NCBI GenBank assembly: GCA_934754495.1
Contig: CAKVHW010000001.1
Coordinates: 136,462-200,461 of the forward strand
DNA: 64,000 bases
Source: an uncultured Clostridia bacterium
GTDB taxonomy: Bacteria; Bacillota; Clostridia; Christensenellales; UBA1242
Direction: 5' to 3'
In this document: piece after piece, positions 9,105-62,685 of the stretch
How positions within the stretch are numbered: position 1 is the stretch's first letter
How the letters are laid out: every line of letters begins with the position of its first letter
Translations under genes and position numbers: made by a program
The notes under the pieces: model-generated
What the model saw: only the letters and a program-made list of their open reading frames with translations
What the model was told of the DNA's origin: nothing
The model's database searches: none

Positions 9105-10205
9105 CTATACAATTCTTACAGGCAATATTAAATATAAAAATTCGTCACTATCATTGCCAGTAATAATACATGGCGCAACACTTGATGAAAAACTTAATTT
9201 TAAAAATTCATCAGTTGTTACTCTTAATGCTTCGGTAAAGTATCTTGCATTAAATGCAATACTTAAGTCGTTACCTTTTAATGAAATGGTGATGTTTTCT
9301 TTAATGTCACCTAATTCACTTTTGCTTGATAACACCATAACACGGTCACTTATATCAAACTTAACAAGGTTGTTTTTATCTATTCTAGATAGTAGTGATG
9401 CTCTCTCTAAAGCATCGGCAAGTTGTTGTTTGTTTAAAATAAGTTCGGTGGTAAAATTGCTAGGAATTATTTGATTGTAATCAATATAATTACCGTCTAA
9501 CAAGCGAGTTGTAATTTTAGTGTTGTCAATATCAACCATTAAGTAGTTTTTTTGAATAAACACCTTAACAGGATTATCATTTTCTTCTAATAGTTTTGAA
9601 ATTTCATTTAAACTACGAGCAGGAACAATAACATTAAATTTACCAGTTGATTTTAAAATTGGTTTTTTAACAACAGCTAATCTATAACCATCTAGAGCAA
9701 TTGATTTTACAAAACCATCTGAAACTTCAAGTTTGCAACCTTTTAGTATTGGTCGTGTATCTTCTTGTGCTACACTAAATATTGACTTATTAATAAGATT
9801 TCTTAGGTCGTTTTGAGTAATTTCAAAATATTCGTTGTAATCAAGTTTTTTTACTTGTGGAAATTCTTGAGGGTTTAAACATTGAATTTTTCCTACACTA
9901 TCGGTGTATTTAATACTAAGCACATTGTTTTCGTTTAGGTTAAGTTCAATTTGTTCATTGCTAAGCTTTTTAATGTATTCATTAAATAGTTTACCAGGAA
10001 CAACTGTTTCACCTTCAAGTTTTACTTCAGCACGAATTGTTTTTTCAATACTAAGTTCTAGGTCGGTTGCTGTTAAAACCAAATTATCTTCTTCTGTAGA
10101 TAGTTTAATTCCTTCTAGTATTGGGTTTGTGGTTTTACTGCTAGTACCTTTAGATACTTTTAATAATGCATCACTAAGTTCTAATCCTTCGCAAACTATT
10201 TTCAT
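9105..10205 (-). CDS. dnaN: DNA polymerase III beta sliding clamp
   Basis: 366 aa with full-length DnaN-like sequence (MKIVCEGLELSDALLKVSKG...LILPVRIV). Confidence 0.95.
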   Translation of the reverse strand: MKIVCEGLELSDALLKVSKGTSSKTTNPILEGIKLSTEEDNLVLTATDLELSIEKTIRAEVKLEGETVVPGKLFNEYIKKLSNEQIELNLNENNVLSIKYTDSVGKIQCLNPQEFPQVKKLDYNEYFEITQNDLRNLINKSIFSVAQEDTRPILKGCKLEVSDGFVKSIALDGYRLAVVKKPILKSTGKFNVIVPARSLNEISKLLEENDNPVKVFIQKNYLMVDIDNTKITTRLLDGNYIDYNQIIPSNFTTELILNKQQLADALERASLLSRIDKNNLVKFDISDRVMVLSSKSELGDIKENITISLKGNDLSIAFNARYFTEALRVTTDEFLKLSFSSSVAPCIITGNDSDEFLYLILPVRIV

Positions 10206-10597
10206 AATACTTCTTCTCCTAATTTGTTATATTATATATTAAATAAAATTTATATTCAATAATATTTTAATCATTTTAAATAGAATTTTAATTTTTGGTT
10301 TATTTGACTTTTATTGGATTTATTTTTTGAGTTTTGTTTTAATTAGTCGAATTCCCCACCAATTTATTTATAAACATAATTAAATAATATTACTCATTAT
10401 ATACAATGTGAATATGTGTACAACTTTAAAAAACACAATATATAGTAAATTAAAATGCCTTTCTTTCGTAAACCATATACTATATGTTGTTTGTTTATAT
10501 GTGCACAACTAGTGTGTAAGTATGTACAACTTACTCACATCTCGTGGTTTACCATGTGTATAACTTTGTTTTTTTTTAATTTTTAACATTGCTTCAA
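10206..10597. other. Candidate oriC sub-region: AT-rich tract plus four same-orientation ATGTGYAYAACT motifs (DnaA-box-like)
   Basis: The dnaA-dnaN intergenic position matches the DUE-bearing half of bipartite Firmicute origins. Motifs lie at 10414-10425, 10499-10510, 10522-10531 and 10554-10565. TGTGTATAA (10555-10563) matches TGTGGATAA at 8 of 9 positions. Confidence 0.55.
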
Positions 10598-10863
10598 CCG
10601 TGCTCTAGCACCACAGAACCAACAGCAGTAAGTGAAATCACTACAGTTGGTTGACAATGCCGTGCGCTAGCACCACAGAACTCACTGAAGTGAATAAAAT
10701 TACTATGGTGTGTTGATAGAAAGCGTGACAACGCCCGGAACCAACTATGGCAGATATAACAACTATGGCTTGCTGATAAGAAGTGCGACAGCACCCAGAA
10801 CCCACTAAATTAAGTTATAATCACTATAGTGTGTTGATAAAGCCGTGCGCTAGCACCTAGGAG
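10598..10863 (+). repeat. Tandem array 1 of a GC-rich ~59-64-bp repeat (about 4.3 units)
   Basis: Unit starts at 10598, 10660, 10724, 10784 and 10843. Unit layout is a head CCGTGCGCTAGCAC, then CAGAACC, then two ACTAYRG heptads about 18-20 nt apart, then a tail GGTTGATAGAG. The last partial unit overlaps the dnaA stop codon. Confidence 0.9.
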
Positions 10864-12197
10864 TTTTGACACATGGATTTAATATCACTAACAATAACCT
10901 TAATACGGTTGTTTTCCTTAATTTTTTCAGAAATTTTTTCACGAGCATGAATAACAGTTGTGTGGTCTTTCTTTCCAAAAATAGAACCAATAGAAGTAAG
11001 TGGAAGGTCAAGTAAATCACACATTATATACATGCTAATTTGACGTGGCTCAACAATCTCTTTGTTTTTCTTTTTACCAAGTAAATCTTCTTTGGAAATA
11101 GAAAAATATTTGCAAACACAATCAATAATTTTGTCACTGTTTAAAGATAACTTGTTGCTGCTAACATGGTCTTTTAAAGCTTCGGTTACATCTTCCATAG
11201 TAGCAGTGGTTTTGCCTAATAATTTAGCAATAAACCAAACTTTTGCAAGTATACCTTCAATTTCACGAATGTTGGTGTCGCAGTTTTCGGCAATGTAGTT
11301 AACAACTTCGTCATCAATGCTGTAATTTTCTTCTTGAATTTTCTTTTTTAGAATTGCAAGACGTGTTTCAAAATCAGGTGATTGAACATCTTGAATAAGC
11401 CCCATACTCATACGAGTTTTAAGACGTTCTTCTAAAGTTTCAATCTCTTTTGGTGGACGGTCAGAAGCAATAATAATTTGCTTGTTTGATTGATATAAAT
11501 CATTAAAAGTGTGAAAAAATTGCTCTTGTGTAGAAGTTTTTTTACTGATAAATTGAATATCATCAACCATTAATACATCAAGATTGCGGTACTTCTCTCT
11601 AAACTTAGAATTAGCATAATCTTTACCACTTGTAAGGCTTGCAATGTAATCGTTTGTAAAGTTTTCACAAGTTACATACATAACCTTTAATTTAGGAAAA
11701 TTCTTCCTAATGTAATTGCCAATTGCATGAAGTAAATGGGTTTTTCCTAGCCCAGACCCACCATAGATAAATAATGGGTTTATTTTACCTGTCGGATTTT
11801 CAGCAACCCCACGTGCAGCGGCATATACAAACTTGTTGCTGTTTCCTACAACATAGTTGTCAAAAGTATATTTTTCTTGAAATTTGCAAAGGTCAAGGTT
11901 TTCTTCCGCTTGTGGTTCGGTAGGCTTACTTTCAAATTCTTTTACTTCGTCTGGATCCAACACTTCAAAATTTTCAATTAAAGGGTTAATTTCCTTTAAT
12001 GCAAAATTAATTTGTGTAGAATGTAACTTTTTTACACGTGTTTTTGCGGTTTCGCTTGTGGCACTTAAATAAAAAACACCATCTCTAAAATCAATAGGTT
12101 CTAGTGTTTTTATCCACAAATCAAACGATACAGCAGTCACTTCCTTTTCAAGTGTTTCTAATGCTTTGTCCCATGTTTCTTTAATTCCCAACATCAC
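10857..12197 (-). CDS. dnaA: Chromosomal replication initiator protein DnaA
   Basis: 446 aa with Walker A GGSGLGKTHLL, VDDIQF, and the C-terminal DNA-binding region DHTTVIHA. Confidence 0.97.
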   Translation of the reverse strand: MMLGIKETWDKALETLEKEVTAVSFDLWIKTLEPIDFRDGVFYLSATSETAKTRVKKLHSTQINFALKEINPLIENFEVLDPDEVKEFESKPTEPQAEENLDLCKFQEKYTFDNYVVGNSNKFVYAAARGVAENPTGKINPLFIYGGSGLGKTHLLHAIGNYIRKNFPKLKVMYVTCENFTNDYIASLTSGKDYANSKFREKYRNLDVLMVDDIQFISKKTSTQEQFFHTFNDLYQSNKQIIIASDRPPKEIETLEERLKTRMSMGLIQDVQSPDFETRLAILKKKIQEENYSIDDEVVNYIAENCDTNIREIEGILAKVWFIAKLLGKTTATMEDVTEALKDHVSSNKLSLNSDKIIDCVCKYFSISKEDLLGKKKNKEIVEPRQISMYIMCDLLDLPLTSIGSIFGKKDHTTVIHAREKISEKIKENNRIKVIVSDIKSMCQNS

Positions 12198-12348
12198 TTC
12201 ATCTCCGTATAAAAATGTGTCTTAATTTTCTCGACACTTCTAATAATAATATAGTACCAAATAAATTCCCAAAAGTAAACAAAAAATAAAAACAAACACT
12301 CCAAAATGCTTGTTTTTCTATTATCTTTTAGGTTTTTAAATATATAAA

Positions 12349-12987
12349 TTATTGTATTTTACTTATCCAGTTTTCTAGTACTTTTAATAAAGTTTTGTAA
12401 TGCTCAAAATTTTCCTTTTTGTTGGTTATGTCGCACCTTATTTCAATCTGTATCGTCCAAATATCACAAAATTCGTTTTTTAACGACCCGCTAATTGTTT
12501 TGTCGCCACCAGAAAATGGCTCGTCGATAAAAACGTTAAACCCACTAGCCATAAGGCTGGTGTTTAAGTTGTTAAACAACTCAATGTTGTTTGATACGTT
12601 TTTTCCACCACTTATGCCAAGGTTTATTTCGCACTCTCGGGTTTCGGCAAGTCCGTGTAAATCAATTATGTATTTTATTTTGTCCGCACGAATTAGTTCT
12701 TTAATTGAATCCTTGTAACTGCTTTGCTCGTCGTAATTAGCATCGTCGTTGTTGTTTTTGGTTTTCGCAATAAAAAAACTTCCCGTTTGCTTTTGTAAAT
12801 ATAAACCAGTGGTCACAGACCCTGGTTCATACACCTTTGATTTACCGTTTCTAGTTTGTTCGACCCCGTGCGGTGCGGAAACTAATACGTTGTTGTTTCC
12901 CGTAATAACAACGTGGTCAAGATTTGCGTTGTCGTTAAGAAAAACGTCCCTTTCGACCACTAATTTTTCAAATGTGATTTTTTTCAT
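12349..12987 (-). CDS. Hypothetical protein, N-formylglutamate amidohydrolase (FGase)-like zinc hydrolase fold
   Basis: 212 aa. The pattern VLVSAPHGVEQTR...EPGSVTT...IIDLHGL resembles the H/E/H metal-ligand pattern of the FGase superfamily. Assignment is by motif only. Confidence 0.45.
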   Translation of the reverse strand: MKKITFEKLVVERDVFLNDNANLDHVVITGNNNVLVSAPHGVEQTRNGKSKVYEPGSVTTGLYLQKQTGSFFIAKTKNNNDDANYDEQSSYKDSIKELIRADKIKYIIDLHGLAETRECEINLGISGGKNVSNNIELFNNLNTSLMASGFNVFIDEPFSGGDKTISGSLKNEFCDIWTIQIEIRCDITNKKENFEHYKTLLKVLENWISKIQ

Positions 12988-13008
12988 TTTTTGCCTTTTT
13001 ATTTAAAT

Positions 13009-13034
13009 AAAACCGCTTTAAATGTTGCGGTTTT
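13009..13034 (-). terminator. Hairpin downstream of recF
   Basis: AAAACCGC...GCGGTTTT stem with flanking T/A runs. Confidence 0.5.
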
Positions 13035-13046
13035 ACATTATTATTT

Positions 13047-14162
13047 TTATTTTAAATTGTTTAGTTCTGATTGTAACTCACTTTCAATAATTTTACCATT
13101 CTCAACAGTAAACTTGTCGCATGGAAACCTAAAATCAAAATCAGTGCAAGTAATAATTGTTTGAATGTTTTGTATTTTTTCCAACAACTTTAACTGTCTT
13201 GAGCCGTCAAGTTCGCTTAACACATCGTCTAGTAGCAACACTGGGTACTCGCCAAGGCGGTCTTTAAATACATCAAGTTCGCCCAATTTTAGTGATAATG
13301 CAACAGTTCGTTGTTGACCTTGCGACCCAAAATGACGCACGTCAATGCCGTTTACGGTTATTTTAAGGTCGTCACGATGTGGTCCAACACTTGTGTAACC
13401 TAATTGCATGTCTTTTTCAAGTGTTTTTTCGTACTCAATCATAAGCATTTTTTTAATAGTCTTTTCGTCATCGGCAGTAAAACCAACATAACTAAGGTCA
13501 AGGGTTTCTTTGCTGTCTGTAAGGTATTTTTGTGCGTAGTTGCAATACACCTTTAACTTTTCAATAAGTTTCATTCTGTCGGCTATTATTTTAGCCCCAA
13601 CAGTGGCAAGTTGGTCATTCCAAATAGAAATGGTTTCTGATAAGGCATTCTTATTTAAACTGGTTTTTAATAGTTTGTTTCGTTGAACCAAAATTTGATT
13701 ATATTTGTTAAGGTTATAAAAATAATTTTTATCGAATTGACAAAGGTCAATATCCATAAACTTCCTACGTTGGTCAGGGCTATCTTTCACAAGTTTTAGT
13801 TCGTCTGGCGAAAAGTATATCGCGTTTAAATTGCCCATAAGTTCGCCCATTTTTTTAATGGCAAGCGAATTTATTTTGATTGTTTTGTTTTGGTCTTCAA
13901 ATATAAAAACCTCAATTTTTTTCTGCGATTTATCTCGCACAAGTTCTAGGGTGACTTTTGCAAAACTACTACGCCACTTAATAAGTTCTTTGTCTTTGGC
14001 TGTGCGTGGACTTTTTCCAATTGCACACATAAAAATACCCTCTAATATATTGGTCTTTCCTTGTGCGTTTTTTCCAATCAAAACGTTAATGTTTGGACCA
14101 AATGTAATTAGTTGGTTGTCGTAATTTCTAAAATTTCTAAGTTCTATTGATTTAATATACAT
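13047..14162 (-). CDS. recF: DNA replication and repair protein RecF
   Basis: 371 aa with Walker A GKNAQGKTNILEGI, signature SQGQQRT and Walker B LLLDDVLSELD. Confidence 0.95.
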   Translation of the reverse strand: MYIKSIELRNFRNYDNQLITFGPNINVLIGKNAQGKTNILEGIFMCAIGKSPRTAKDKELIKWRSSFAKVTLELVRDKSQKKIEVFIFEDQNKTIKINSLAIKKMGELMGNLNAIYFSPDELKLVKDSPDQRRKFMDIDLCQFDKNYFYNLNKYNQILVQRNKLLKTSLNKNALSETISIWNDQLATVGAKIIADRMKLIEKLKVYCNYAQKYLTDSKETLDLSYVGFTADDEKTIKKMLMIEYEKTLEKDMQLGYTSVGPHRDDLKITVNGIDVRHFGSQGQQRTVALSLKLGELDVFKDRLGEYPVLLLDDVLSELDGSRQLKLLEKIQNIQTIITCTDFDFRFPCDKFTVENGKIIESELQSELNNLK

Positions 14163-14270
14163 TACTTTTACCTAAATATTCCCTATAAAATATTATACCA
14201 TATTTTGCGGTGCTTTCAAAATATTTTTATAGATAACATTTTTAATTTAACACCGCTTTTAAATATGTAA

Positions 14271-14449
14271 ATGAAGCAATGTTATAACACAACCACTACA
14301 GTAGGCTGATAGAGAGTGTGTCAACACCCAGAACCCGCTACAGTGAATATAATCACTACAGCCGGCTGACAATGCCGTGCGCTAGCACACAGGACTCATT
14401 ATCGTAAATATACTAACTTTGGCTGGTTGATAGAGCCGTGCGCCAGCAC
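14271..14449 (+). repeat. Tandem array 2 of the same GC-rich repeat (about 3 units), in the recF-gyrB divergent intergenic region
   Basis: Unit starts near 14271 (partial), 14317, 14375 and 14436 (partial). The 22-mer TGACAATGCCGTGCGCTAGCAC at 14367-14388 is identical to 10652-10673 and is in the same orientation. Confidence 0.9.
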
Positions 14450-14522
14450 TATATATAATATAATTTATATATTATTTTATAAAAATTATTTGTTATATAA
14501 TAAATTTTATGTTATTATATAA

Positions 14523-16481
<1,959 letters not shown>

Positions 16482-16493
16482 GGAGTGTAGGCA

Positions 16494-19076
16494 ATGGATA
16501 AAAAAGATATTGACGAAATTTTAGAAAAAAATGATAATTCAAAAATTATAGACGTTAAGGTTAAGGAAGAACTTGAAAAATCATTTATTGCCTATGCAAT
16601 GGCGGTTAATGTTAGCCGTGCTATTCCTGATGTTAGAGATGGTTTAAAACCTGTTCATCGTAGAATTTTGTATTCCATGAACGAACTTGGACTTACTCCA
16701 GATAAACCTTACAAAAAATGTGCTACTATTGTCGGTGATGTTCTTGGTAAATACCATCCACACGGCGATAGTTCGGTATACGATGCATTAGTTAGACTTG
16801 CTCAAGACTTCTCTATTAACTTACCACTTGTAGACGGTCATGGAAACTTTGGTAGTGTAGATGGTGATAGTCCAGCGGCTTACCGTTATACTGAAGCCCG
16901 CATGAGTAAACTTGCTATTGAAATGCTTAGAGAAATAGATAAAGAAACAGTAGATTTTTACCCTAACTTTGATGATACTCTAATGCAACCAGTTGTGCTT
17001 CCTTCACGTTTTCCAAACTTGCTTGTTAATGGTAGTGACGGTATCGCCGTAGGTATGGCAACCAATATTCCACCACACAACTTAGCAGAAGTTATTGACG
17101 GTGTAATAGCACTTATTGACAATAAAGATATAGATATTGACGAATTGTGTAAAATTATACCTGGCCCAGACTTCCCTACACGTGCACTTATTCTTGGTAG
17201 AAAAGGTATTAAAGATATGTACCGCACAGGCCGTGGCTCATTCTATATTCGTAGCCGTGCCGAAATTGAAGATTATGCTAATGGCACTCGCCAACGTATT
17301 GTAATCTCCGAAATTCCTTACCAAGTAAACAAAGCAAAACTTATTATTCAAATTGCCGATTTAGTAAAAGCAAAACGTATTGAAGGCATTAGTGATATTA
17401 AGGAAGAAAGCGACCGTGAAGGTATGCGTATTGTAATTGAAGTTAAGAAAGATGCAAACGCACAAGTTGTTCTTAATACACTATACAAACACACCCAACT
17501 TCAAATAAGTTTTGGTGCAATCATGCTTGCACTTGTTGATGGTGTTCCTAAAATTTTAAACCTTAAAGAAATTCTTACACACTATTTGAATTTTCAAAAA
17601 GATGTTATTGTAAGACGTACTAAATACGATCTTGATAAGGCAGAACAAAAAGCACACATTTTGCAAGGTTTAGTAATTGCTCAAGCAAATATTGACGAAG
17701 TAATTCGTACCATCAAACTTTCTGATGATAAAAACGATGCTATTGCAAAACTTATTAAATTATTTGAACTTACCGAAAAACAAGCAACCGCAATTCTTGA
17801 TATGAGACTTCAACGTCTTACTGGTCTAGAAGTTGAAAAACTAAAACAAGACCTTGTTAGCACTGAGAACGCTATTAGAGAATTTAAAGAAATTTTGGCA
17901 AGCGAAGAAAAAGTATTGTTAATAATTAAACACGACCTTACCGAAATTAAAGAAACCTATGGTGTTCCACGTAAGAGCGAAATTAGTTTTGATTATAGCG
18001 AAATTGATGTTGCTGACCTTATTAAAAAGGAAAATGTTGTTGTTACACTTACTCACGGTGGCTATATTAAACGTATGCCAGTTAGCGAATACAAGGCACA
18101 ACATCGTGGCGGTATGGGTGTAAGTGCTCATAAGACTAAAGAAGAAGACTTTGTAGAAAGCATTTATGTTACTTCTACTCATGACGAACTATTCTGCTTT
18201 AGTAATAAGGGTAAAGTTTACACAATGAAAGCATACGAAATTCCTGAAGCACAAAAACAAGCCAAAGGCAGAGCATTTGTAAACTTACTTCAACTAGACC
18301 AAGACGAACGTATCACAACAATTATTCCAATTGCTGATAAATCAAATGGTTATTTGGTTATGAGTACTAAGTATGGTTTGATTAAAAAGACCAAACTTGA
18401 AGAATTTGAAAGTATACGTAAAAACGGGAAAATTGCCATAAAGCTTAACGAAAATGACGAATTGATTAGCGTTTATGTCACAAACGGCAATAATGAGATA
18501 ATTATGGCAAGTAGTTCTGGTAAGTGTATTAGGTTTAACGAGAAGTATGTAAGAGTACTTGGTCGTGAAGCAATGGGTGTTAAATCTATTAGACTTGAAG
18601 AAGGCGAATATATTGTTGATATGGCTGTTGTTAACCCAGACCTTAAGATGCTTACAATTAGTGAATATGGTTATGGTAAACGTAGCAATCCAGACGACTA
18701 CCGTGTACAAGGCCGTAACGGAAAAGGTATCAAGGCTGGTATCTTTAACGAACAAACTGGCGGTCTTGTAAATTTAAAACAAGTATCAGATACTGACGAC
18801 ATTATGATTATTTGTGATGACGGTCAAATTATTAGAATTAAAGCAAGTGAAATTAATGTTATTGGTAGAAATACCAAAGGTGTTAAAATTATGAAAATGC
18901 GTAACAATGGTAAGATTATTGCTGTTGCTATCACACCTAGCGAGGAAGAAGAACAAAACATGGCTGAAAACATGGAAGAAGGTGTTGTAGAAGATGTACT
19001 TCCAGACGACCTACCAGATGATATGCCAGAACCTACTCCAAACCTTGCTCAAGAAGACGATAGTTTGCTTGACTAA
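16494..19076 (+). CDS. gyrA: DNA gyrase subunit A
   Basis: 860 aa with the active-site region AAYRYTEARM and the QRDR-type YHPHGDSSVYDALVRLAQ. Acidic C-terminal tail. Confidence 0.97.
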   Translation: MDKKDIDEILEKNDNSKIIDVKVKEELEKSFIAYAMAVNVSRAIPDVRDGLKPVHRRILYSMNELGLTPDKPYKKCATIVGDVLGKYHPHGDSSVYDALVRLAQDFSINLPLVDGHGNFGSVDGDSPAAYRYTEARMSKLAIEMLREIDKETVDFYPNFDDTLMQPVVLPSRFPNLLVNGSDGIAVGMATNIPPHNLAEVIDGVIALIDNKDIDIDELCKIIPGPDFPTRALILGRKGIKDMYRTGRGSFYIRSRAEIEDYANGTRQRIVISEIPYQVNKAKLIIQIADLVKAKRIEGISDIKEESDREGMRIVIEVKKDANAQVVLNTLYKHTQLQISFGAIMLALVDGVPKILNLKEILTHYLNFQKDVIVRRTKYDLDKAEQKAHILQGLVIAQANIDEVIRTIKLSDDKNDAIAKLIKLFELTEKQATAILDMRLQRLTGLEVEKLKQDLVSTENAIREFKEILASEEKVLLIIKHDLTEIKETYGVPRKSEISFDYSEIDVADLIKKENVVVTLTHGGYIKRMPVSEYKAQHRGGMGVSAHKTKEEDFVESIYVTSTHDELFCFSNKGKVYTMKAYEIPEAQKQAKGRAFVNLLQLDQDERITTIIPIADKSNGYLVMSTKYGLIKKTKLEEFESIRKNGKIAIKLNENDELISVYVTNGNNEIIMASSSGKCIRFNEKYVRVLGREAMGVKSIRLEEGEYIVDMAVVNPDLKMLTISEYGYGKRSNPDDYRVQGRNGKGIKAGIFNEQTGGLVNLKQVSDTDDIMIICDDGQIIRIKASEINVIGRNTKGVKIMKMRNNGKIIAVAITPSEEEEQNMAENMEEGVVEDVLPDDLPDDMPEPTPNLAQEDDSLLD

Positions 19077-48343: not shown

Positions 48344-50974
48344 TTAAATATTGTTCCTTTTTGAAATGTTTGACACATATTCAATATGCTCAACAGCAAA
48401 TCCTTGTTTTTTTTCTATTATTTTTCCAAGCTTAATAATATCCCCAATTTTGGGAGTAAAATCCAGCCTAAATCTAGAAAAATAAATTCCTTTAGGATAA
48501 TCTAAGTTTTTAACAAAACCAAAATCTTCTCTAACATTGTATATTATGGCTTCTCCTTTATTTAATGATGCCAACTCTGAATCAACATCAAAGACATAGG
48601 ATAACAATTCTTCTCGGCCATTAAAATTAGGGAATTCGCTTTTCTTTTCCCTTATAATTTTTTTTAAGCGTTTGAAGTTTGTAGTTTTAAATAAATTAGT
48701 ATTATATTTTCTAAACGTTTCATTGATAATCTCCAAAACCTTTTTGTTGGGGACGACATAAAACATATCTGTAAGTACAAGTGCAATAAAATTTAGAGTA
48801 TCTTCATCTGGATCAGGTTCTTTTTCAACAGTGGTCAAACATTCACTAAGTTTCTCTAGTTTTAAAGAAATGTTTCGATTATCAATTTTTTCAGCCTCTC
48901 TTCTTTTTATGTCAGACAATCTTAAATAAAAAAGATTTCTAGCAGTCCTATTTTTTTCTATATTGTGAAACTCAATTGAATCTATACAATTATAAGCCTC
49001 ATCAAATCTTCCGCAACAAGATAAAATTTTCGTTTTTTCAAAAACAATATATTCATCTTTTTTAATTAGCTCTGCCTTATCCAATTTGTCAATTGCACCA
49101 TTGTAATCATTTGTGCTGAGTAAAAATTTTGCATAATGAATATATATCATTCTTGTTTCATTAATATCCGTTGAATTATTTAATGCTATTTCATATTCTT
49201 CTATTGATCTCTGAGGGTTTGTGCTTGAATTTAAAAAAGCACTTACTATGTTGCAGGCAAAAAAATTCGGACTTATGCGTTTTGCTATATCTAAAAGGTT
49301 GCTACACTCTGAGATGTTTTTGTTTTTATAGCAAGATAATGCTTCTCTAAGATAATATGCCGATACGAGTTTATGTTTTTCACTAGTCGAAACAAAGTAG
49401 TTTTTTATATTGTAAGGATCTGTATTAAAATCTGATGCCAACTCTTGCTCAAAGGCAAACAATCTTTTTTGCTTGTTGTTAAGCCTAATTTGATCATATT
49501 TATCTAGTTTTAATAAGAATTCCTTTGCAAACTCAGATACGGATATAACAGAGTCATCATTATAAATTGTTTGTTCAATAAAACTACTATTTATTAAATC
49601 ATTTATTGCTTTTCTTATTTTTAATTCGTTTCCTTTTTCTACTTCCATAAAATAAAAAAGCTCGCCTATTGTTAATGATTTATTCAGAACAGATAAAACG
49701 TTTAATAAATTTTTCGCATCTTCACTAAGTTTTTCATAAACATTCGACATGCAGAAATTTACAACATCATCCTTATGACTTAGTATATCTTTTATATCTT
49801 TCGCATCTTTACGTGATGATAGTGTTCTTACAAACCATTTTATTGCAAGGGGATTTGAGTGTAATTCATTTTTTGCATAATTTAATTTTTCATCATATGT
49901 AAAATAATTCTTAAATCCATACAATTCAAGTAAGGTATCGAAATATTCTAGCATATCTTCTTCTTTCAATCCCAAAAGTTTATAACGTGTTTCCATCTCA
50001 CCCAATCCAATTCTTGACGTAATAATAACTTTTGCATTTTCAGTAAAACGAGAAAGGAAGTCTTTTACTTCTTCGGAGTTTATTGTTTCCAAGTTGTCCA
50101 AAACAAGTAAAATGTTAAATTTAGTAGATAAAGATATCAAATACTCTTTTATATCAACCTGTTGATCATTACCTCCAACAACATCATACAATTCTTTATA
50201 CATTCCCGATGTATCAGTTATAGCATTTTCTATTTTTTGAAACTCATATTTATTTAGTGTCTTGGTTTTTAAAGATGTCCATAATATCAAATTAAAAGGC
50301 TGGTTTATATCATCAAGTAATTCATATAGTAATTTGATAGTTGTTGAAGTTTTACCAATTCCGCCTTCGCCAACTATACTTAAAATATGCACATTCTTTT
50401 TAAATAGTTTTTCCTTTATTTCGCCTATTTCTTTTTTTCTTCCAATAAAAGAAGTTTCTTCAAAATCAACGTCTTGTGGTAAATTTTCAATAACACTAAG
50501 AGATTTTTTCAATCTAATTTTAGATTCAAGCTTTAACAACTCGTCGTTATTTGGCAAAATATTATTTTGAGCAAAATCCACATTTGTCCAACTAAACAGT
50601 GACAGCTCTTTACTGATACAATTAAAACATTCCTGCAGTTTTGGAAAATCATAAAAATCAAGTAGCCTTGGGTGCATTATTTTGTTTCTAATTCCTATTA
50701 TTTCAGACAATGTGGAGTTGACAAATTTCTTTTCACTGCTTGTGGCTTCTAATTTTAATATATTATAATTAAATATTTCAATATATTGTTGTAAGTCTAA
50801 GGCTCTTAAGAAATCCTCAAAGCTGTTAATGGCTTTTTTGCTACTAATTTCACTTTTTAAGTTTGATGGAATGTCGTCTAATGTTAAAAACTGTAAATAA
50901 TTATAAATAATATCTTCTTCTATTGAATTAATCATTACATACATTTTTATTCGTTTTAAAAGTTTATTTATCAT
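48344..50974 (-). CDS. STAND NTPase fusion: N-terminal Swt1-like HEPN, NB-ARC-type P-loop NTPase, TPR-like repeats, C-terminal cold-shock (OB) domain
   Basis: HEPN motif RNKIMH at nt 50672-50689. Walker A GEGGIGKT at nt 50348-50371. Walker B LLVLDNLE, plus IITSR and SNPLAIKW (NB-ARC-like RNBS-B and GLPL motifs). Helical-repeat region at about aa 540-700. The C-terminal GEAIIYNVREDFGFVKNLDYPKGIYFSRF...GDIIKL...GFAVEHI (nt about 48374-48556) matches the CSD pattern G-x-V-x-x-F-x-x-x-x-GFGFI...VF. Confidence 0.8.
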   Translation of the reverse strand: MINKLLKRIKMYVMINSIEEDIIYNYLQFLTLDDIPSNLKSEISSKKAINSFEDFLRALDLQQYIEIFNYNILKLEATSSEKKFVNSTLSEIIGIRNKIMHPRLLDFYDFPKLQECFNCISKELSLFSWTNVDFAQNNILPNNDELLKLESKIRLKKSLSVIENLPQDVDFEETSFIGRKKEIGEIKEKLFKKNVHILSIVGEGGIGKTSTTIKLLYELLDDINQPFNLILWTSLKTKTLNKYEFQKIENAITDTSGMYKELYDVVGGNDQQVDIKEYLISLSTKFNILLVLDNLETINSEEVKDFLSRFTENAKVIITSRIGLGEMETRYKLLGLKEEDMLEYFDTLLELYGFKNYFTYDEKLNYAKNELHSNPLAIKWFVRTLSSRKDAKDIKDILSHKDDVVNFCMSNVYEKLSEDAKNLLNVLSVLNKSLTIGELFYFMEVEKGNELKIRKAINDLINSSFIEQTIYNDDSVISVSEFAKEFLLKLDKYDQIRLNNKQKRLFAFEQELASDFNTDPYNIKNYFVSTSEKHKLVSAYYLREALSCYKNKNISECSNLLDIAKRISPNFFACNIVSAFLNSSTNPQRSIEEYEIALNNSTDINETRMIYIHYAKFLLSTNDYNGAIDKLDKAELIKKDEYIVFEKTKILSCCGRFDEAYNCIDSIEFHNIEKNRTARNLFYLRLSDIKRREAEKIDNRNISLKLEKLSECLTTVEKEPDPDEDTLNFIALVLTDMFYVVPNKKVLEIINETFRKYNTNLFKTTNFKRLKKIIREKKSEFPNFNGREELLSYVFDVDSELASLNKGEAIIYNVREDFGFVKNLDYPKGIYFSRFRLDFTPKIGDIIKLGKIIEKKQGFAVEHIEYVSNISKRNNI

Positions 50975-51457: not shown

Positions 51458-52654
51458 ATGACGACTTTTTTAATAGTGTTTATCTTGGTTTTGGCAGCAG
51501 TATGTGTTTTGCACTGTTTTTTTACAAGTCCATGCAACTTTAGGGATTGGTTTGTTAACAAACATGCATGGATTTGGATTGTTGGAGTAGTTATATCTTT
51601 TATTATACTAGCTTTATTCATTGAATCGCCACTGATTTTTGTTTGTGTATTCGCTGCGGGGCTTTTTATAGTTTTTGTGGGCTGTAATAATTGGTCGACC
51701 ACAAAAGATGCCAGAGAAAAGAAAAACAAAGAAAAAAATGATAACTTTTTTGAGGAGTGTGTTTATAACAAAATAGATAAAATGCTTATATATTCTAGTT
51801 GTGGAACCGACTTTAAAATCGAAAAACACAAATTTACATGCTATAGTAATAAATTGAAAAAAATTATTGATAACATATATTTCGATGTTAAGAATAGAAC
51901 AAATAGAGATGATTGTCGTGAAGACTATTATATATTGAGAAATTTTATTGGTGACTCTTTGGAAGATGTTACAAAATTCGAAAAAAAAGTTATAGAGAAT
52001 CGTTTCAAGTTTGTAAGCACAGATTTGGAGGTGGCTAGTTTCTTTGATGTAAAGTATAACAAAATAAGTGAATATTTGCTAAATTTCAAGGAAAGCATGT
52101 GTAAAACCTTTTTAATAATCAAAGGAGGATATATTACTCCAAACAAACAAGACCTAAGGATATATAAAATCCTGCCAGAAAAGTTGATTGAAATCGAAAG
52201 AAAAAACATGAAACCTTATTTAAGAATATTCGAAATCGAAAATTTTTTAAGGATATATATAAATTTAAAGTATTATGCAAAATATGGCAATTATAGTTTG
52301 GATGAATTATTTAAATATGCTACAAAAGCAAAGGCTAAATCACAAACAAGATTTGAAACTGCACAAAAACAAGGTTGGACAATGCCTTTAGAACAGCCAA
52401 TTGTGTTTTATGTTAATTTTGAAGACTTGGAATCCTTGTTAACAGCCTCATCCAATTGGGATTTGTTCAAGGACGATTTTAAAAGTCAAGATTTTATTAA
52501 GTTGCGTTTAAATGAATTATATGATATAAGAAACAAAATAGCACACAATTGTTCTCTAAGTAAGAGTGAAATAACAAGCTTAAACAGATGGTGTGGTCAA
52601 ATTTATTCGCAACTTTCAAACTACAAAGAGAAAATAAGAAATTGGAAGTTCTAG
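51458..52654 (+). CDS. Membrane protein with three N-terminal TM helices and a C-terminal Swt1-like HEPN domain
   Basis: RBS GGTGGA. TM segments lie within aa 1-80. NELYDIRNKIAHNCSL gives RNKIAH at nt 52529-52546. The upstream VNFEDLESLLTASSNWDLF parallels INSFEDFLRALDLQQYIEIF of the STAND protein. Confidence 0.75.
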   Translation: MTTFLIVFILVLAAVCVLHCFFTSPCNFRDWFVNKHAWIWIVGVVISFIILALFIESPLIFVCVFAAGLFIVFVGCNNWSTTKDAREKKNKEKNDNFFEECVYNKIDKMLIYSSCGTDFKIEKHKFTCYSNKLKKIIDNIYFDVKNRTNRDDCREDYYILRNFIGDSLEDVTKFEKKVIENRFKFVSTDLEVASFFDVKYNKISEYLLNFKESMCKTFLIIKGGYITPNKQDLRIYKILPEKLIEIERKNMKPYLRIFEIENFLRIYINLKYYAKYGNYSLDELFKYATKAKAKSQTRFETAQKQGWTMPLEQPIVFYVNFEDLESLLTASSNWDLFKDDFKSQDFIKLRLNELYDIRNKIAHNCSLSKSEITSLNRWCGQIYSQLSNYKEKIRNWKF

Positions 52655-58383: not shown

Positions 58384-58430
58384 AAAAAAAATAAGACATT
58401 CTATAAGCAGAGTAGAATGTCTTATTTTAT
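58384..58430. terminator. Bidirectional terminator after hsdR
   Basis: 14-bp stem AATAAGACATTCTA / TAGAATGTCTTATT flanked by an A-run and a T-run. Confidence 0.85.
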
Positions 58431-61393
58431 TATTCTTTTAATTTGTTATAAACAACTCTAAATAAAGCGGATTTTATGTCGTTCATAAATTCTTCATCAG
58501 TAAATAATATTTTGAAAAGTTCACTATTTTGTTCATATCTTTGAATAGCTTTGTTTTCAAATTCTTTATCATAAACTTTCTTAAATGCCTTTTCTTCATT
58601 GTTTCTAGCAAAAGCTTTCATTCGTTCATCGTTAAGATAATCACTTTCGATTTGTTCAAATACCTTATCCATATTTGTGAACTTAGTTTGGTACTTCTTA
58701 TTTATTTTGTCAATAATTTCACTTAATTTATTTTTTTTTTCTTCACATTTTCTTCCAATATTACCTGTTGCAGGAGCTATTTCTCCTTGCTCTTTTGTTA
58801 AACTAATACTTCCTTCAAATTTCTTTTCGATTTTAAAATATTCTAGTTCGACTAGGTCTTTAACATCAATTTTTTTAGTATTGTCTTTAGGGAGAAACTG
58901 GTTTAAATATTTATAATAAATGTATGATGCTTGCAGATCTTTATCATTCATTCTAGTAACTTGTGTAACAAAATTATAATTTCTTAAAAATGCTCGCATT
59001 ATTGATTTGAATTCGTATTTATCTTTCTTGTCCAAATTAATGTATTTTTCTTTTGATTTATACAAATATGAACTTAATTTTCCCATATCTTCCGAGTTTG
59101 AATAATACAAATCCGCAAATCCATTAATGTCGTTAATGTCAACTATTTTATATGCCTCCAATCTACCATAAATATCATACACATTATTTACATCAAAACC
59201 TTCCGTTAAAACTGTTCCTTGATAATAATCTTGAAATGCATTTTGTATTTCCTCTGCTTTGTTAACAAAATCGAGAACAAATGTATCTGTTTTACCTTCA
59301 CAAATTCTATTTAATCTTGATAAAGTTTGAACTGCTTTAATTCCAGAAAGTTTTTTATCAACAAACATAGTATGAAGAAGTGGCTGATCAAAACCTGTTT
59401 GATATTTCTCTGCAACGATTAAAACATTGTATTCTTCATCAAATGCTTCAGGAAGCTGAGTTTCGCTGATTTTATTGATGCCAGCCTCAGTATATGTTTC
59501 ATTTGTGTCAGGATCAAAAACCTCACCAGAAAATGCAACTAATACTTTTATTTTATCTTCCATTGAAATCTTTTTGATGTATTCTTTGAAAGCATTTATA
59601 TATTTTACTGCATGCAATCTTGAAGGTGTTACAACCATAGCTTTTGCTCTTCCATTAATCTTGTATGCGGTCGTATTTAAAAATTGTTCTATTATAATTG
59701 CGGTTTTTTGCGAAATATTAGTAGGATGCAAAGTTTCAAATCGAATTAATTCTTTAATACCTTTTCCAGCCTCAAATTCAGGATCTTCATTTGCTTTTTT
59801 AACAAGTTTATAAAATGTGCTGTATGTCATATAGTTTTGAAGAACATCTAATATAAAACCTTCCTCAATAGCTTGTTGCATAGAATAAATATGAAATGGA
59901 ACGTAAGTACCAGATTCAGTTTTATTTCCAAAAATTTGTAAAGTTTTTGCTTTTGGTGTTGCCGTAAAGGCAAAGAATGAAAGGTTTTTTTGTTTTCCTT
60001 GACTTGCCAGTTCATTTAAAAGTTTATCTTCATTTTCAGAAGCAAGTTCTTCTAGTTCGCTTTCTATTTTAATTGCTTCTTCTAAATCACCCAATCCTGC
60101 CTTTAATTTTTTAGCACTATTGCCAGTTTGTGAAGAATGAGCTTCATCTATTATAACCGCAAAATGTTTGTTTTCAGATTTGATATCTTTGTATATTATA
60201 GGAAATTTTTGTAATGTTGTAATAATAATCTTCTTACCTGAATTTACTGCAGTTAATAAATCCTTGCTAGATTTATTTTTATCAATTTTTTCAATGAACC
60301 CCAAAGTGTGCTCAAATTGATAAATATTATCTTGTAGTTGTTGATCAAGCACTCGTCTGTCAGTGATAACGATAACGCTATCAAATATTGTTTTATCATC
60401 TTTATCATGTAATGTTGCTAAGCGATAGGCAAGCCATGCAATGCTATTGCTTTTACCACTTCCAGCACTATGTTGAATCAAATAATTTTTTCCTGCACCA
60501 TTTTGTTTAGCATCTGCTATTAATTTTCTAACTACATCTAGTTGATGATATCTTGGAAATATTAATGTTTTTTTAATTTCTCCGGTCTTTTTATTTTTTT
60601 TAACTTCTAATTGAATATATTTATTTAAGATATCAAACAGACTATCTTTATTTAATACATTTTCCCATAAATATGCTGTCGCAAAACCATTTTCATTGTA
60701 TGGATTCCCTTTTCCTCCGACGTTGCCGGCACTATTAGATCCTTGATTAAATGGCAAAAATTTTGTTGCTATTCCATTTAATTTTGTGGTCATGTATACT
60801 TCTTGCAAATCTACAGCAAAATGAACTAAAGATCTTTTATTAAATCGGAAAATTATTTCATTTGGATCTCTGTCATTTTTATACTGACGAATTGCATCAT
60901 CACATGTTTGTCCTGTAAATTCATTCTTTAATTCTATTGTTACAATAGGGAAACCATTAATAAATAAAACAGAATCTAAGCTATTATTGTTTAAATATGA
61001 ATAATGAAGCTGACGAACAAGTTTACAAATATTTTGTTCGTATAGTTTCATACTATCAGCATTGATATTGCTTTCAGGTTTAAAGAAAATAAGATTAATT
61101 GTTACTCCATTTAATTTTATTCCATTTCGTAATACATGTAAGAATCCATTTTCATCAATATTTTTCTTTAGTCTATCAATAAAGTATGTTTCAGCTTGAC
61201 TACCTTGACTATCTATAACTTTTTTCCATTCTCTTGGTTGGGATGTTTTAATGAATGAAAACATATCAGAAATAATAATTCCTGTTTTGTTATCGTATCC
61301 AGTTTCGTCAGCTTTAATGTAACCACCTTTAGTAGTTAAGTATTTTTCAATAAAAGCTTCATAATTTTTTTCTTTAGTTTCCATTAAATACAC
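58430..61393 (-). CDS. hsdR: Type I restriction enzyme, R subunit
   Basis: 987 aa. N-terminal nuclease motif VTIELKNE, helicase motif I HSAGSGKSNS and motif II VIIDEAHSSQ. Confidence 0.93.
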   Translation of the reverse strand: MYLMETKEKNYEAFIEKYLTTKGGYIKADETGYDNKTGIIISDMFSFIKTSQPREWKKVIDSQGSQAETYFIDRLKKNIDENGFLHVLRNGIKLNGVTINLIFFKPESNINADSMKLYEQNICKLVRQLHYSYLNNNSLDSVLFINGFPIVTIELKNEFTGQTCDDAIRQYKNDRDPNEIIFRFNKRSLVHFAVDLQEVYMTTKLNGIATKFLPFNQGSNSAGNVGGKGNPYNENGFATAYLWENVLNKDSLFDILNKYIQLEVKKNKKTGEIKKTLIFPRYHQLDVVRKLIADAKQNGAGKNYLIQHSAGSGKSNSIAWLAYRLATLHDKDDKTIFDSVIVITDRRVLDQQLQDNIYQFEHTLGFIEKIDKNKSSKDLLTAVNSGKKIIITTLQKFPIIYKDIKSENKHFAVIIDEAHSSQTGNSAKKLKAGLGDLEEAIKIESELEELASENEDKLLNELASQGKQKNLSFFAFTATPKAKTLQIFGNKTESGTYVPFHIYSMQQAIEEGFILDVLQNYMTYSTFYKLVKKANEDPEFEAGKGIKELIRFETLHPTNISQKTAIIIEQFLNTTAYKINGRAKAMVVTPSRLHAVKYINAFKEYIKKISMEDKIKVLVAFSGEVFDPDTNETYTEAGINKISETQLPEAFDEEYNVLIVAEKYQTGFDQPLLHTMFVDKKLSGIKAVQTLSRLNRICEGKTDTFVLDFVNKAEEIQNAFQDYYQGTVLTEGFDVNNVYDIYGRLEAYKIVDINDINGFADLYYSNSEDMGKLSSYLYKSKEKYINLDKKDKYEFKSIMRAFLRNYNFVTQVTRMNDKDLQASYIYYKYLNQFLPKDNTKKIDVKDLVELEYFKIEKKFEGSISLTKEQGEIAPATGNIGRKCEEKKNKLSEIIDKINKKYQTKFTNMDKVFEQIESDYLNDERMKAFARNNEEKAFKKVYDKEFENKAIQRYEQNSELFKILFTDEEFMNDIKSALFRVVYNKLKE

Positions 61394-62685
61394 CTCTTTT
61401 TACCTGTTACATATTCATATATCATAGATCTTTTGTAAGTTTCAAGTTCTTCAATTTTTTTATTTTTAATTTTAATTAAATCATCAATACATTTGCATTT
61501 ATTATTTAATGCATTTACTATTGACTTTTGTTCGTTTTGAGGCGGTAACACCACAAAACATTGTGATAGCATTCTCTTTGTAATACTAAACAATTTAACA
61601 CCATTGACTCTGCTTCTAAGTTGACTTTTCCATAAATCTGTCATAAACTGAAAAGCTAAATAATTTGAATATGTATTGTTTTTGTTTATTAATGAAATCG
61701 TATGGTATCCAGCAAAAACCGTGTCGTTATTATCAATATGTATAAAATCACCGGTTCCTTCTAAATCCTCAGAAGTATCTGCAAATACAAAATCACCATA
61801 ATGGACTAGAGAATTTTGATTTGTATCCAAATATTCATCAGAAACAAATCTATAAAGACTATCATCTATTTTAACTGATTTATTTGATTTTGAGTGTATT
61901 TGTCCATAACTAATTACTTTTATTCCATTTTTAATTAGATTTTCTTTTGTAATTGGCAATCCTTTACCAAAATCAAATAATATTTTTAAAGGAATTATGT
62001 TCCAATTATCAGGAACCTGTCCAAAATAATCAATGTTTTTCATTTTTGTAGTTTTATTTAGACCTTGAACTACAATTTCTGATATAACCGATTGTTTGTA
62101 TTCTTCTAATTTTTCAATTTCTTTTTCTTCAAGTGAAATAAGCGCATCAATTTGAGAACATTTTTTATCAAGAAAGTCTGCAATTTGAGTTTGTTCTTCA
62201 AAAGATGGGAGTGGTATGTAATAATTCATCAACGTTTCATTATTTAATGTCCATCTATTATCAAAAGATACACCTTTGCCGTGAGCAAAAAATGTCATTG
62301 CCCAATATTGACATTTAAAATAATAATCATAGTACCTGGAATCTGATTTTCTGTAACTTCGCAAATTCATATATGCAGGACTTATAACGCCATTAACTTT
62401 AGAGTAGCTACAATTTGCTCCACTGTATAAATCCATAGGGTTTAATAATAAATCTCCAACTTTTACAGGATTATAATCATAATAACTTTCGGCTAATTGT
62501 CCTTCATTATTAGAAATATCCCTTATTTTAACACCACTTCTAGCAAGCGATAAAACTACTGGATTTTCTGTTTGAGCCTTTGCTTGACTTCTATAGAATA
62601 TATTTTTAACTTTTCCCACATTCCAACTATCAGGTATTTGACCAATCCATTTAACTGAACTTTCTTTATAATTATTCATTACCAA
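61384..62685 (-). CDS. hsdS: Type I restriction enzyme, S (specificity) subunit
   Basis: 433 aa with two target-recognition halves, each followed by a conserved coiled-coil spacer (EEQTQIADFLDKKCSQIDALI... and QNEQKSIVNALNNKCKCIDDLI...). Overlaps hsdM by 14 nt and hsdR by 10 nt. Confidence 0.9.
   Translation of the reverse strand: MVMNNYKESSVKWIGQIPDSWNVGKVKNIFYRSQAKAQTENPVVLSLARSGVKIRDISNNEGQLAESYYDYNPVKVGDLLLNPMDLYSGANCSYSKVNGVISPAYMNLRSYRKSDSRYYDYYFKCQYWAMTFFAHGKGVSFDNRWTLNNETLMNYYIPLPSFEEQTQIADFLDKKCSQIDALISLEEKEIEKLEEYKQSVISEIVVQGLNKTTKMKNIDYFGQVPDNWNIIPLKILFDFGKGLPITKENLIKNGIKVISYGQIHSKSNKSVKIDDSLYRFVSDEYLDTNQNSLVHYGDFVFADTSEDLEGTGDFIHIDNNDTVFAGYHTISLINKNNTYSNYLAFQFMTDLWKSQLRSRVNGVKLFSITKRMLSQCFVVLPPQNEQKSIVNALNNKCKCIDDLIKIKNKKIEELETYKRSMIYEYVTGKKRCI

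Follow-up and report, generated by a model that had tools for sequence, protein, structure and literature searches.

The repeat array between recF and gyrB (array 2) may well be one of two local copies of a genus-specific, locus-bound minisatellite of hairpin heads and variable bodies, serving as a recombination substrate and not as a component of the replication origin. The other copy (array 1) lies between dnaA and dnaN. Both were found in the window, by which we mean the whole 64-kb stretch of DNA analyzed here.

Two arrays of a 61-nt repeat flank dnaA

A profile HMM built from the repeat units was run with nhmmer over the whole window. It found a tandem unit of ~61 nt in two arrays, with all units on the plus strand and no third copy in the 64 kb below an E value of ~1. 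Array 2 had been described from the letters alone as a second copy of the array-1 repeat, in the same orientation and with about three units, which is a fair description of two full units, one partial unit and a head. The arrays and the genes around them are as follows.

9105-10205, minus strand, dnaN (Pfam)
10598-10856, plus strand, array 1: four full units and a terminal head
10843-10856, plus strand, terminal head of array 1: 14 nt, directly adjoining the dnaA stop codon (10857-10859)
10857-14162, minus strand, block between the arrays (dnaA, FGase-fold gene, recF)
10857-12194, minus strand, dnaA (Pfam)
12349-12987, minus strand, FGase-like gene, 212 aa (Pfam)
13047-14162, minus strand, recF (Pfam)
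14274-14449, plus strand, array 2: one partial unit, two full units and a terminal head
14274-14314, plus strand, partial or degenerate first unit of array 2: the 3' two-thirds of a body (model positions 21-60 by nhmmer, E = 2e-6)
14316-14375 (14316-14374 by HMM), plus strand, first full unit of array 2: head GTGTGTCAACAC at 14318-14329, then body (E = 1e-15)
14376-14436 (14376-14435 by HMM), plus strand, second full unit of array 2: head GTGCGCTAGCAC at 14377-14388, then body (E = 4e-15)
14437-14449, plus strand, terminal head hairpin of array 2: CGTGCGCCAGCAC, adjoining the conserved A+T-rich gyrB promoter region
14450-14552, plus strand, A+T-rich spacer upstream of gyrB: 103 nt, 7.8% G+C, putative gyrB promoter
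14553-16481, plus strand, gyrB (Pfam)
16494-19076, plus strand, gyrA

The full units of array 1 lie at 10600-10842 and were detected at E values of 6e-16 to 3e-14. The minus strand carries, in order, recF, the FGase-fold gene, dnaA, dnaN, rpmH, rnpA, yidD and yidC, while gyrB and gyrA diverge on the plus strand. Pfam bears out the gene identities proposed earlier, so that arrays in direct orientation do bracket dnaA, the FGase-like gene and recF. Three further details of the sequence-only reading were also recovered. Both arrays end in the same type of terminal head, array 2 is followed by ~100 bp of nearly pure A+T before gyrB, and an exact match of 22 nt (TGACAATGCCGTGCGCTAGCAC) joins 10652-10673 to 14367-14388. 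The match is exactly 22 nt long and spans the tail-head junction, the best-conserved part of the unit, and is therefore no special feature. The 14-nt head CCGTGCGCTAGCAC occurs six times in the window with up to three mismatches, always within the two arrays, against 0.5 occurrences expected. Tandem Repeats Finder called array 1 only, because the units of array 2 are merely 65 to 82% alike.

A 16-nt segment at the left edge of array 1 (10581-10596) matches the reverse complement of 14272-14287, at the left edge of array 2, to 94%; the match is weaker in other strains. Open frames of 66 aa (10594-10794, minus strand) and 54 aa (10641-10805, minus strand) run across array 1. A 51-aa ORF was called in array 2 of a same-species locus (L006), and ORFs of 80 aa and 48 aa were called in the dnaA-dnaN spacers of two related loci (L037 and L038). 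These are likely spurious genes made by the repeats, and arrays of this kind are thus a warning for assembly and annotation, with spurious ORFs of up to 66 aa in the window.

The head of each unit is a hairpin kept by compensatory substitutions

A unit of 59 to 63 nt consists of a hairpin head followed by a body of ~47 nt that is richer in A+T. The head is 12 to 13 nt long and GC-rich, with a stem of 4 to 5 bp and a loop of 4 to 5 nt (e.g., GTGC-GCTA-GCAC), and the motif CC(C)NGAAC is conserved 3' of it on the plus strand. Covariation was assessed over 26 distinct heads from three lineages, with four degenerate heads left out. The stem was paired in 96% of cells, compared to 8 to 49% in slid controls. 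Double changes occurred at all four head pairs, in 15 cells versus 3.8 in shuffles, and none of 500 shuffles reached as high a count. Stem variants include GTGC/GCAC, GCGT/ACGC, GTGT/ACAC, ATGC/GCAT, GTAC/GTAC and a fully flipped GCAC/GTGC whose loop is unchanged. Compensatory substitutions maintain the head stem. This upkeep could reflect either selection on a single-stranded structure or template switching at quasi-palindromes, a mutational process that yields compensatory-looking changes without selection (PMC7202029; PMC8794818).

The case for pairing in the body is much weaker. The type I body of the window is an imperfect palindrome, roughly CAGAACCNACTACAG..AATATAAT..ACTACAGNNGGYTGAYARWG, whose helix is paired in 79% of cells, mostly via conserved sequence. 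Its pairing is scarcely above that of column shuffles (82.0% versus 80.2%), its covariation is weak, and RNAalifold gave no consensus structure for it. Many array-1 units carry direct, not inverted, sub-repeats in the body, and bodies of type II, found in lineage 3 (see below), fold weakly. We therefore rejected the body hairpin as a conserved RNA helix, given the missing RNAalifold consensus, the direct sub-repeats and a pairing marginally above the shuffle control.

Arrays vary among strains of the species

Exact matches to the GyrB and DnaN proteins gave 16 same-species loci, drawn from ENA, Logan and a single NCBI MAG (GCA_964317905.1); once duplicate assemblies are discounted, 13 of them are distinct. 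Exact look-ups of the window DnaA (446-aa start), RecF and the FGase-like protein matched no record. Outside the arrays the strain loci are 97.5 to 99% identical to the window (100% in L027), and an array is present at each site that a locus of the species spans. The arrays themselves differ. Array 1 has two to four units and array 2 has zero to three full units, and 40 of 75 units among the strains are distinct. Unit order is shuffled (a,b,c,d versus a,c,d versus b,a), and many units resemble mosaics of a few archetypes. Such fast turnover would follow from replication slippage or unequal recombination. For strain typing, the arrays are a useful marker.

On its left, array 2 begins with either of two forms, the partial unit seen in the window or a hairpin of ~130 bp that we call module B. 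The latter takes the place of the partial unit in 10 of the 16 retrieved loci (duplicates included). Module B (L001 9632-9767; also L005, L022, L024, L026 and L030) is an imperfect palindrome with arms built of GTGGAAA/GTGAAAA heptads. It had no match elsewhere in the compared sequences or in Rfam.

Recombination between direct arrays had been expected to excise dnaA. No such excision was seen: all 13 distinct loci, each spanning both sites, keep the block between the arrays. Crossovers between the arrays are presumably not seen because they would remove the essential dnaA gene.

Arrays are shared by three lineages and exchange sequence between sites

The closest named relative is a Christensenellales MAG with a DnaA identity of 65%. 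At 90% identity the DnaN cluster splits into five lineages that are 92.6 to 95.4% mutually identical. Lineage 3 (L035 and L036, two independent assemblies) carries five diverged units between dnaA and dnaN, with a period of ~63 nt, the head GTGC-GACCA-GCAC and a body of type II, and two units plus a head on the gyrB-promoter side. In lineage 4 (L037 and L038) the dnaA-dnaN spacer holds DnaA boxes, then about three inverted units, then one or two direct units, whose number differs between the two loci; the last head is at the dnaA stop codon. The inverted units occupy L037 6480-6665, so both orientations are possible in arrays of this family. The 228-bp recF/gyrB spacer of lineage 4 has no array. 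Contigs of lineage 5 (P0128) end 40 to 70 nt upstream of dnaN at low-coverage breaks, one of them in a Nextera adaptor, and are uninformative.

The placement of the terminal head is conserved: it adjoins the dnaA TAG stop codon, or overlaps it by 1 nt, in lineages 1, 3 and 4; lineage 2 has a TAA stop and no head there. Within the 13- to 21-kb loci of the three lineages, arrays were found in the two dnaA-flanking spacers only. The arrays predate the divergence of at least three species-level lineages.

Lineage 2 (L011 and L033) has the gene order of the window (gyrA-gyrB / recF-dnaA-dnaN-rpmH) at ~77 to 84% nucleotide identity, with arrays at neither site and no FGase-fold gene. A supposed relic head beside its gyrB promoter (GATTGTGCGCGCC) is alike by eye but was rejected because the HMM did not support it. 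The outgroup L015 (DnaA identity, 73%) likewise has the recF-dnaA-dnaN / gyrB order and no arrays. Gene order is therefore a clade trait independent of the arrays, and the origin works without them. The sequence-only reading had itself held that its link to oriC would be coincidental if relatives with the same gene order lacked the arrays, and lineage 2 and L015 bear this out in part.

Units at the two sites of one genome resemble each other (identity of 0.71 in lineage 1 and 0.74 in lineage 3) more than units at the same site do between lineages (0.59 to 0.61). This within-genome likeness shows concerted evolution by sequence exchange between the arrays, and it indicates gene conversion, by which the two sites would homogenize each other. 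On the likeliest reading, a self-perpetuating structural repeat occupies two permissive spacers that tolerate length change, one after the dnaA stop codon and one between the divergent recF and gyrB promoters. Its side effects would be hairpins in the dnaA 3' untranslated region, if that region is read through, and a recombination substrate along whose edges the oriC core moved in lineage 3.

The oriC core lies beside array 1 in the window

The sequence-only reading took the two array-bearing spacers as the two parts of a bipartite oriC. The dnaA-dnaN spacer does contain an origin-like segment.

10206-10367, no strand assigned, A+T-rich region between dnaN and the DnaA boxes: G+C of 0.21 to 0.22, putative unwinding element and dnaN promoter
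10368-10563, minus strand, oriC core: seven DnaA-box matches (TTATNCACA, at most one mismatch), five of the seven on the minus strand

This is the sole DnaA-box cluster near the arrays, and it is homologous in L011, L015, L037 and, relocated, in L035. As in a bipartite Firmicutes oriC, the arrays stand beside dnaA and one spacer has a DnaA-box cluster and an A+T-rich region. The units, however, are not DnaA boxes, and the second spacer is box-free in this genome. With the same motif and threshold we found zero boxes in the recF/gyrB spacer (14163-14552) versus seven in the core; the two spacers thus form no bipartite oriC here, and array 2 was rejected as its second box cluster. The recF/gyrB spacer is also not immediately upstream of dnaA. 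Two array-1 units hold one-mismatch box matches at chance level. Cumulative GC skew has its minimum near 14.3 kb, and because this coincides with the gene-strand switch, skew cannot tell apart two spacers 4 kb from each other.

Four perfect parS sites (TGTTTCACGTGAAACA) lie at 1399-1414, 1687-1702, 2209-2224 and 2816-2831, compared to 0.3 expected by chance. They surround gidB and parA, as expected near an origin. The arrays themselves were considered as parS sites and rejected.

In lineage 3, whose DnaN is 94.5% identical, the core has moved, and the two independent assemblies agree on this. Its recF/gyrB spacer is 937 bp long (L035 2304-3240) and contains a segment homologous to window 10319-10583 and also to the dnaA-dnaN spacers of L011, L015 and L037. 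The relocated core has an A+T-rich element, a GC cluster and three perfect DnaA boxes, with about eleven box matches in L035 2510-3092; the dnaA-dnaN spacer of this lineage (L035 6537-7000) has an array only and no DnaA boxes. The relocated core is followed by a segment of ~330 bp with GC-rich hairpins (segment X) and then by array 2. Segment X (L035 ~2560-2890) contains the hairpins CCGCCCC..GGGCGGG and GGTGTGCG..CGCACACC, and it has no homolog among the other loci and no Rfam match. Lineages 1 and 4 therefore have the core directly to the left of array 1, and lineage 3 has it to the left of array 2. Its orientation is the same in both settings, and both relocation breakpoints coincide with left array edges. 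The outgroups point to the dnaA-dnaN spacer as its ancestral place.

The earlier proposal that the repeats mediated a local rearrangement thus stands in part: a move of the core with breakpoints at array edges agrees with it, whereas the gene order that prompted it is independent of the arrays. Recombination between the direct arrays could excise a dnaA-recF circle with one array, and re-integration of the circle into the A+T-rich region left of the core would yield the arrangement of lineage 3.

The arrays are probably not a working part of the replication origin. With no DnaA boxes in the units and a related lineage that has the same order without arrays, they are not a required origin component, and the origin-linked function put forward in the sequence-only reading found no support. 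An origin-associated role of another kind is unlikely, though credible. The arrays, as hairpins or cruciforms, might absorb or signal negative supercoiling, bind gyrase or a nucleoid protein, or insulate oriC, dnaA and the gyrB promoter. Such a role would fit their restriction to the two dnaA-side spacers in three lineages, the occurrence of both arrays throughout the strains of the species, the compensatory change in the head, the contact of array 2 with the conserved gyrB promoter region and the position of the core beside an array in both configurations. This last point exceeds what a neutral repeat predicts, and persistence at the same sites in three lineages, with both arrays in every strain and the head kept up, fits a selected function as well as it fits a minisatellite. 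Against such a role, neither the units nor the array-2 spacer has DnaA boxes, and arrays are absent from lineage 2 and the outgroup, which share the gene order and the oriC core. Unit number also ranges from 0 to 4, and the gyrB site of lineage 4 has no array. Finally, if origins fire at the box clusters, array 1 is replicated in opposite directions in lineages 1 and 3, which leaves no consistent polarity.

Promoters and transcription around the arrays

The A+T-rich spacer before gyrB is conserved in all lineages, including those without arrays. Promoter-like sites were found on the minus strand in the A+T-rich region beside dnaN (10259-10231) and upstream of recF.

14192-14219, minus strand, recF promoter-like site: TTGAAA-16-TGnTATAAT, 11 of 12 positions, consensus match only

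Because the latter site separates array 2 from recF, the array is located upstream of it and outside any 5' leader that would start there.

The arrays might instead yield a structured minus-strand RNA. Array 1 would then be a dnaA 3' untranslated region or a stabilizer of dnaA-dnaN mRNA, a processing platform or a small-RNA source, and array 2 would belong to a separate transcript from the A+T-rich region. We regard this as distinctly unlikely. The minus strand of the window array folds better than shuffles (z = -2.2) and the plus strand does not (z = -1.1), with values of -4.0 and -1.1 in L001, which hints at a constraint at the transcript level and speaks against the minisatellite reading. 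The body helix has more G.T pairs, which are valid on the minus strand alone, than A.C pairs (98 versus 59). Moreover, three lineages share the orientation and placement of the terminal head at the dnaA stop, there is no terminator between dnaA and array 1, and a weak promoter-like site (14483-14455, minus strand) would start a transcript at the array-2 head. However, wobble pairs in the head show no strand preference, and the body helix is poorly conserved, as described above. The weak folding of type II bodies and the units in both orientations in lineage 4 also speak against an RNA. The strong recF promoter has array 2 on its upstream side, and the match at 14483-14455 is at chance level for A+T-rich DNA. 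At the gathering score, Rfam identified only three tRNAs in the window, by which we rejected a known RNA family, and a permissive scan of the arrays returned chance-level matches to eukaryotic miRNAs and snoRNAs only.

The arrays resemble known intergenic hairpin repeats

The best reading of the element is that it is a new family within a known kind, the MIRU-, BOX- and NIME-like intergenic hairpin repeats. As expected of a MIRU-like VNTR, the arrays are non-coding head-to-tail direct repeats of 59 to 63 nt on one strand, with a copy number that is polymorphic among strains of one species, and their head shows the compensatory pairing of a structured hairpin. Domain searches of the window ORFs found no transposase, recombinase, integrase or RAYT. 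On the right the arrays end in a clean head and on the left in degenerate units, and neither end has a terminal inverted repeat or target site duplication. A CRISPR array was rejected, since the bodies are mutually homologous (65 to 98% identity) and no Cas domains occur in the window. Plasmid-type iterons, which are 17- to 22-bp repeats beside rep, were rejected on the period of 61 nt, the lack of a rep gene and the lack of plasmid similarity. No plasmid or phage similarity of the arrays was found.

MIRU-VNTRs are direct tandem repeats of 40 to 100 bp in operon spacers, in one orientation, touching the stop codon and polymorphic in copy number. The dnaA-flanking arrays share the tandem intergenic layout, the contact with a stop codon and the strain-variable copy number. 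MIRUs, in contrast, occupy ~40 dispersed loci and lack a defining covarying hairpin, whereas the present arrays are known at two neighboring loci only, are hairpin-based and have at least two body types. In NIME arrays, a short conserved inverted repeat, dRS3, alternates with longer variable RS bodies of a few families. The conserved head and variable bodies form strain-variable mosaic arrays in the same way, but the dRS3 sequence differs, and dRS3 is dispersed and a phage integration target. REP and BIME elements bind gyrase and stabilize mRNA. The likeness to these lies in imperfect extragenic palindromes, often 3' of genes; REPs, however, are ~35 nt long, alternate in orientation, exist in hundreds of copies and go with RAYT transposases, while the repeat described here is a 61-nt direct tandem with no RAYT in the window. 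Pneumococcal BOX elements (boxA-boxB(n)-boxC) are modular and intergenic, with a strain-variable number of internal modules and extensive secondary structure; their range is a single species or genus, and they probably influence the genes transcribed together with them (PMC3049150). Modular intergenic structure, a variable tandem module, secondary structure and a restricted range are common to both, but BOX elements exist in >100 dispersed copies and are regarded as parasitic mobile elements, while the present repeat shows no dispersal in 64 kb and no sequence similarity to BOX.

A dispersed mobile repeat (MITE-, REP- or BOX-like) would make the dnaA arrays simply the copies that fall in the window, and we hold this to be very unlikely. 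The modular, palindromic build with variable copy number recalls BOX and NIME (PMC3049150), the ~130-bp hairpin module is present or absent at the array-2 edge among strains, and the phyletic distribution is patchy. Against dispersal, the HMM and a head-motif search found no copies in L032 or in the remaining ~63 kb of the window. The window has dozens of intergenic regions, among which a BOX-like density of ~1 per 20 kb predicts about three. The same sites are occupied in three lineages (in lineage 4 only the dnaA-dnaN site) with no other match in their 15-kb loci, and no transposase is nearby. Scans of GTDB species genomes, JGI metagenomes and IMG/VR with the strict head-junction pattern TGAYARWGCCGTGCNCYAGCAC gave 4, 4 and 0 matches, none of them true, in sets of which the first two probably lack the species. 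These chance matches all lie in contigs of 58 to 63% G+C; the window has 31.5%. The species' NCBI MAG (L025) contains TGAYARWGCCGTGCNCYAGCAC but is outside the scanned genome set, so the scans are uninformative on dispersal within the genome. The readable sequence of the species comes to ~67 kb in total, so a low-copy dispersed family retains some probability.

A recombination module near the origin and the interest of the locus

The arrays could also be a recombination module of the origin neighborhood, confined to the two dnaA-flanking spacers, that exchanges sequence, lets the oriC core or the recF-dnaA block move and has in its head a selected origin signal. The core would then move by array-by-array excision and forced re-integration, as one possible route. 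We have little confidence in this stronger version and prefer the locus-bound minisatellite.

Either way, the arrays represent a new hairpin-based family of intergenic tandem repeats in uncultured Christensenellales-like gut bacteria. Their setting adds interest: the family appears tied to the dnaA spacers across species, the arrays homogenize across the essential dnaA gene, and relatives differ in which spacer bears the core. The relocation of the oriC core is a more interesting result than the repeat family. Should the arrays mediate it, or influence control of the origin or of gyrB, they would offer a natural system for the study of origin movement; should they prove dispersed elsewhere in the genome, they would be an ordinary repeat family.

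Two other features of the window deserve mention. The FGase-like product is confidently predicted from its structure model (pLDDT, 96) to be an enzyme of the N-formylglutamate amidohydrolase, poly-gamma-glutamate hydrolase or carboxypeptidase fold. Its family is small (36 database clusters), and the gene has its own terminator. Because the gene and the arrays co-occur in the same lineages, a link between them was considered and rejected: the gene is missing in L022 and L029, both of which keep both arrays, and the two are probably unrelated. Farther along the window lies a defense-like cluster with an NB-ARC STAND NTPase, a further protein that matches the PADLOC candidate PDC-M34B (E = 2e-18) and the type I restriction-modification genes hsdR, hsdS and hsdM.

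48344-50974, minus strand; 51458-52654, plus strand; 58430-63949, minus strand: defense-like cluster
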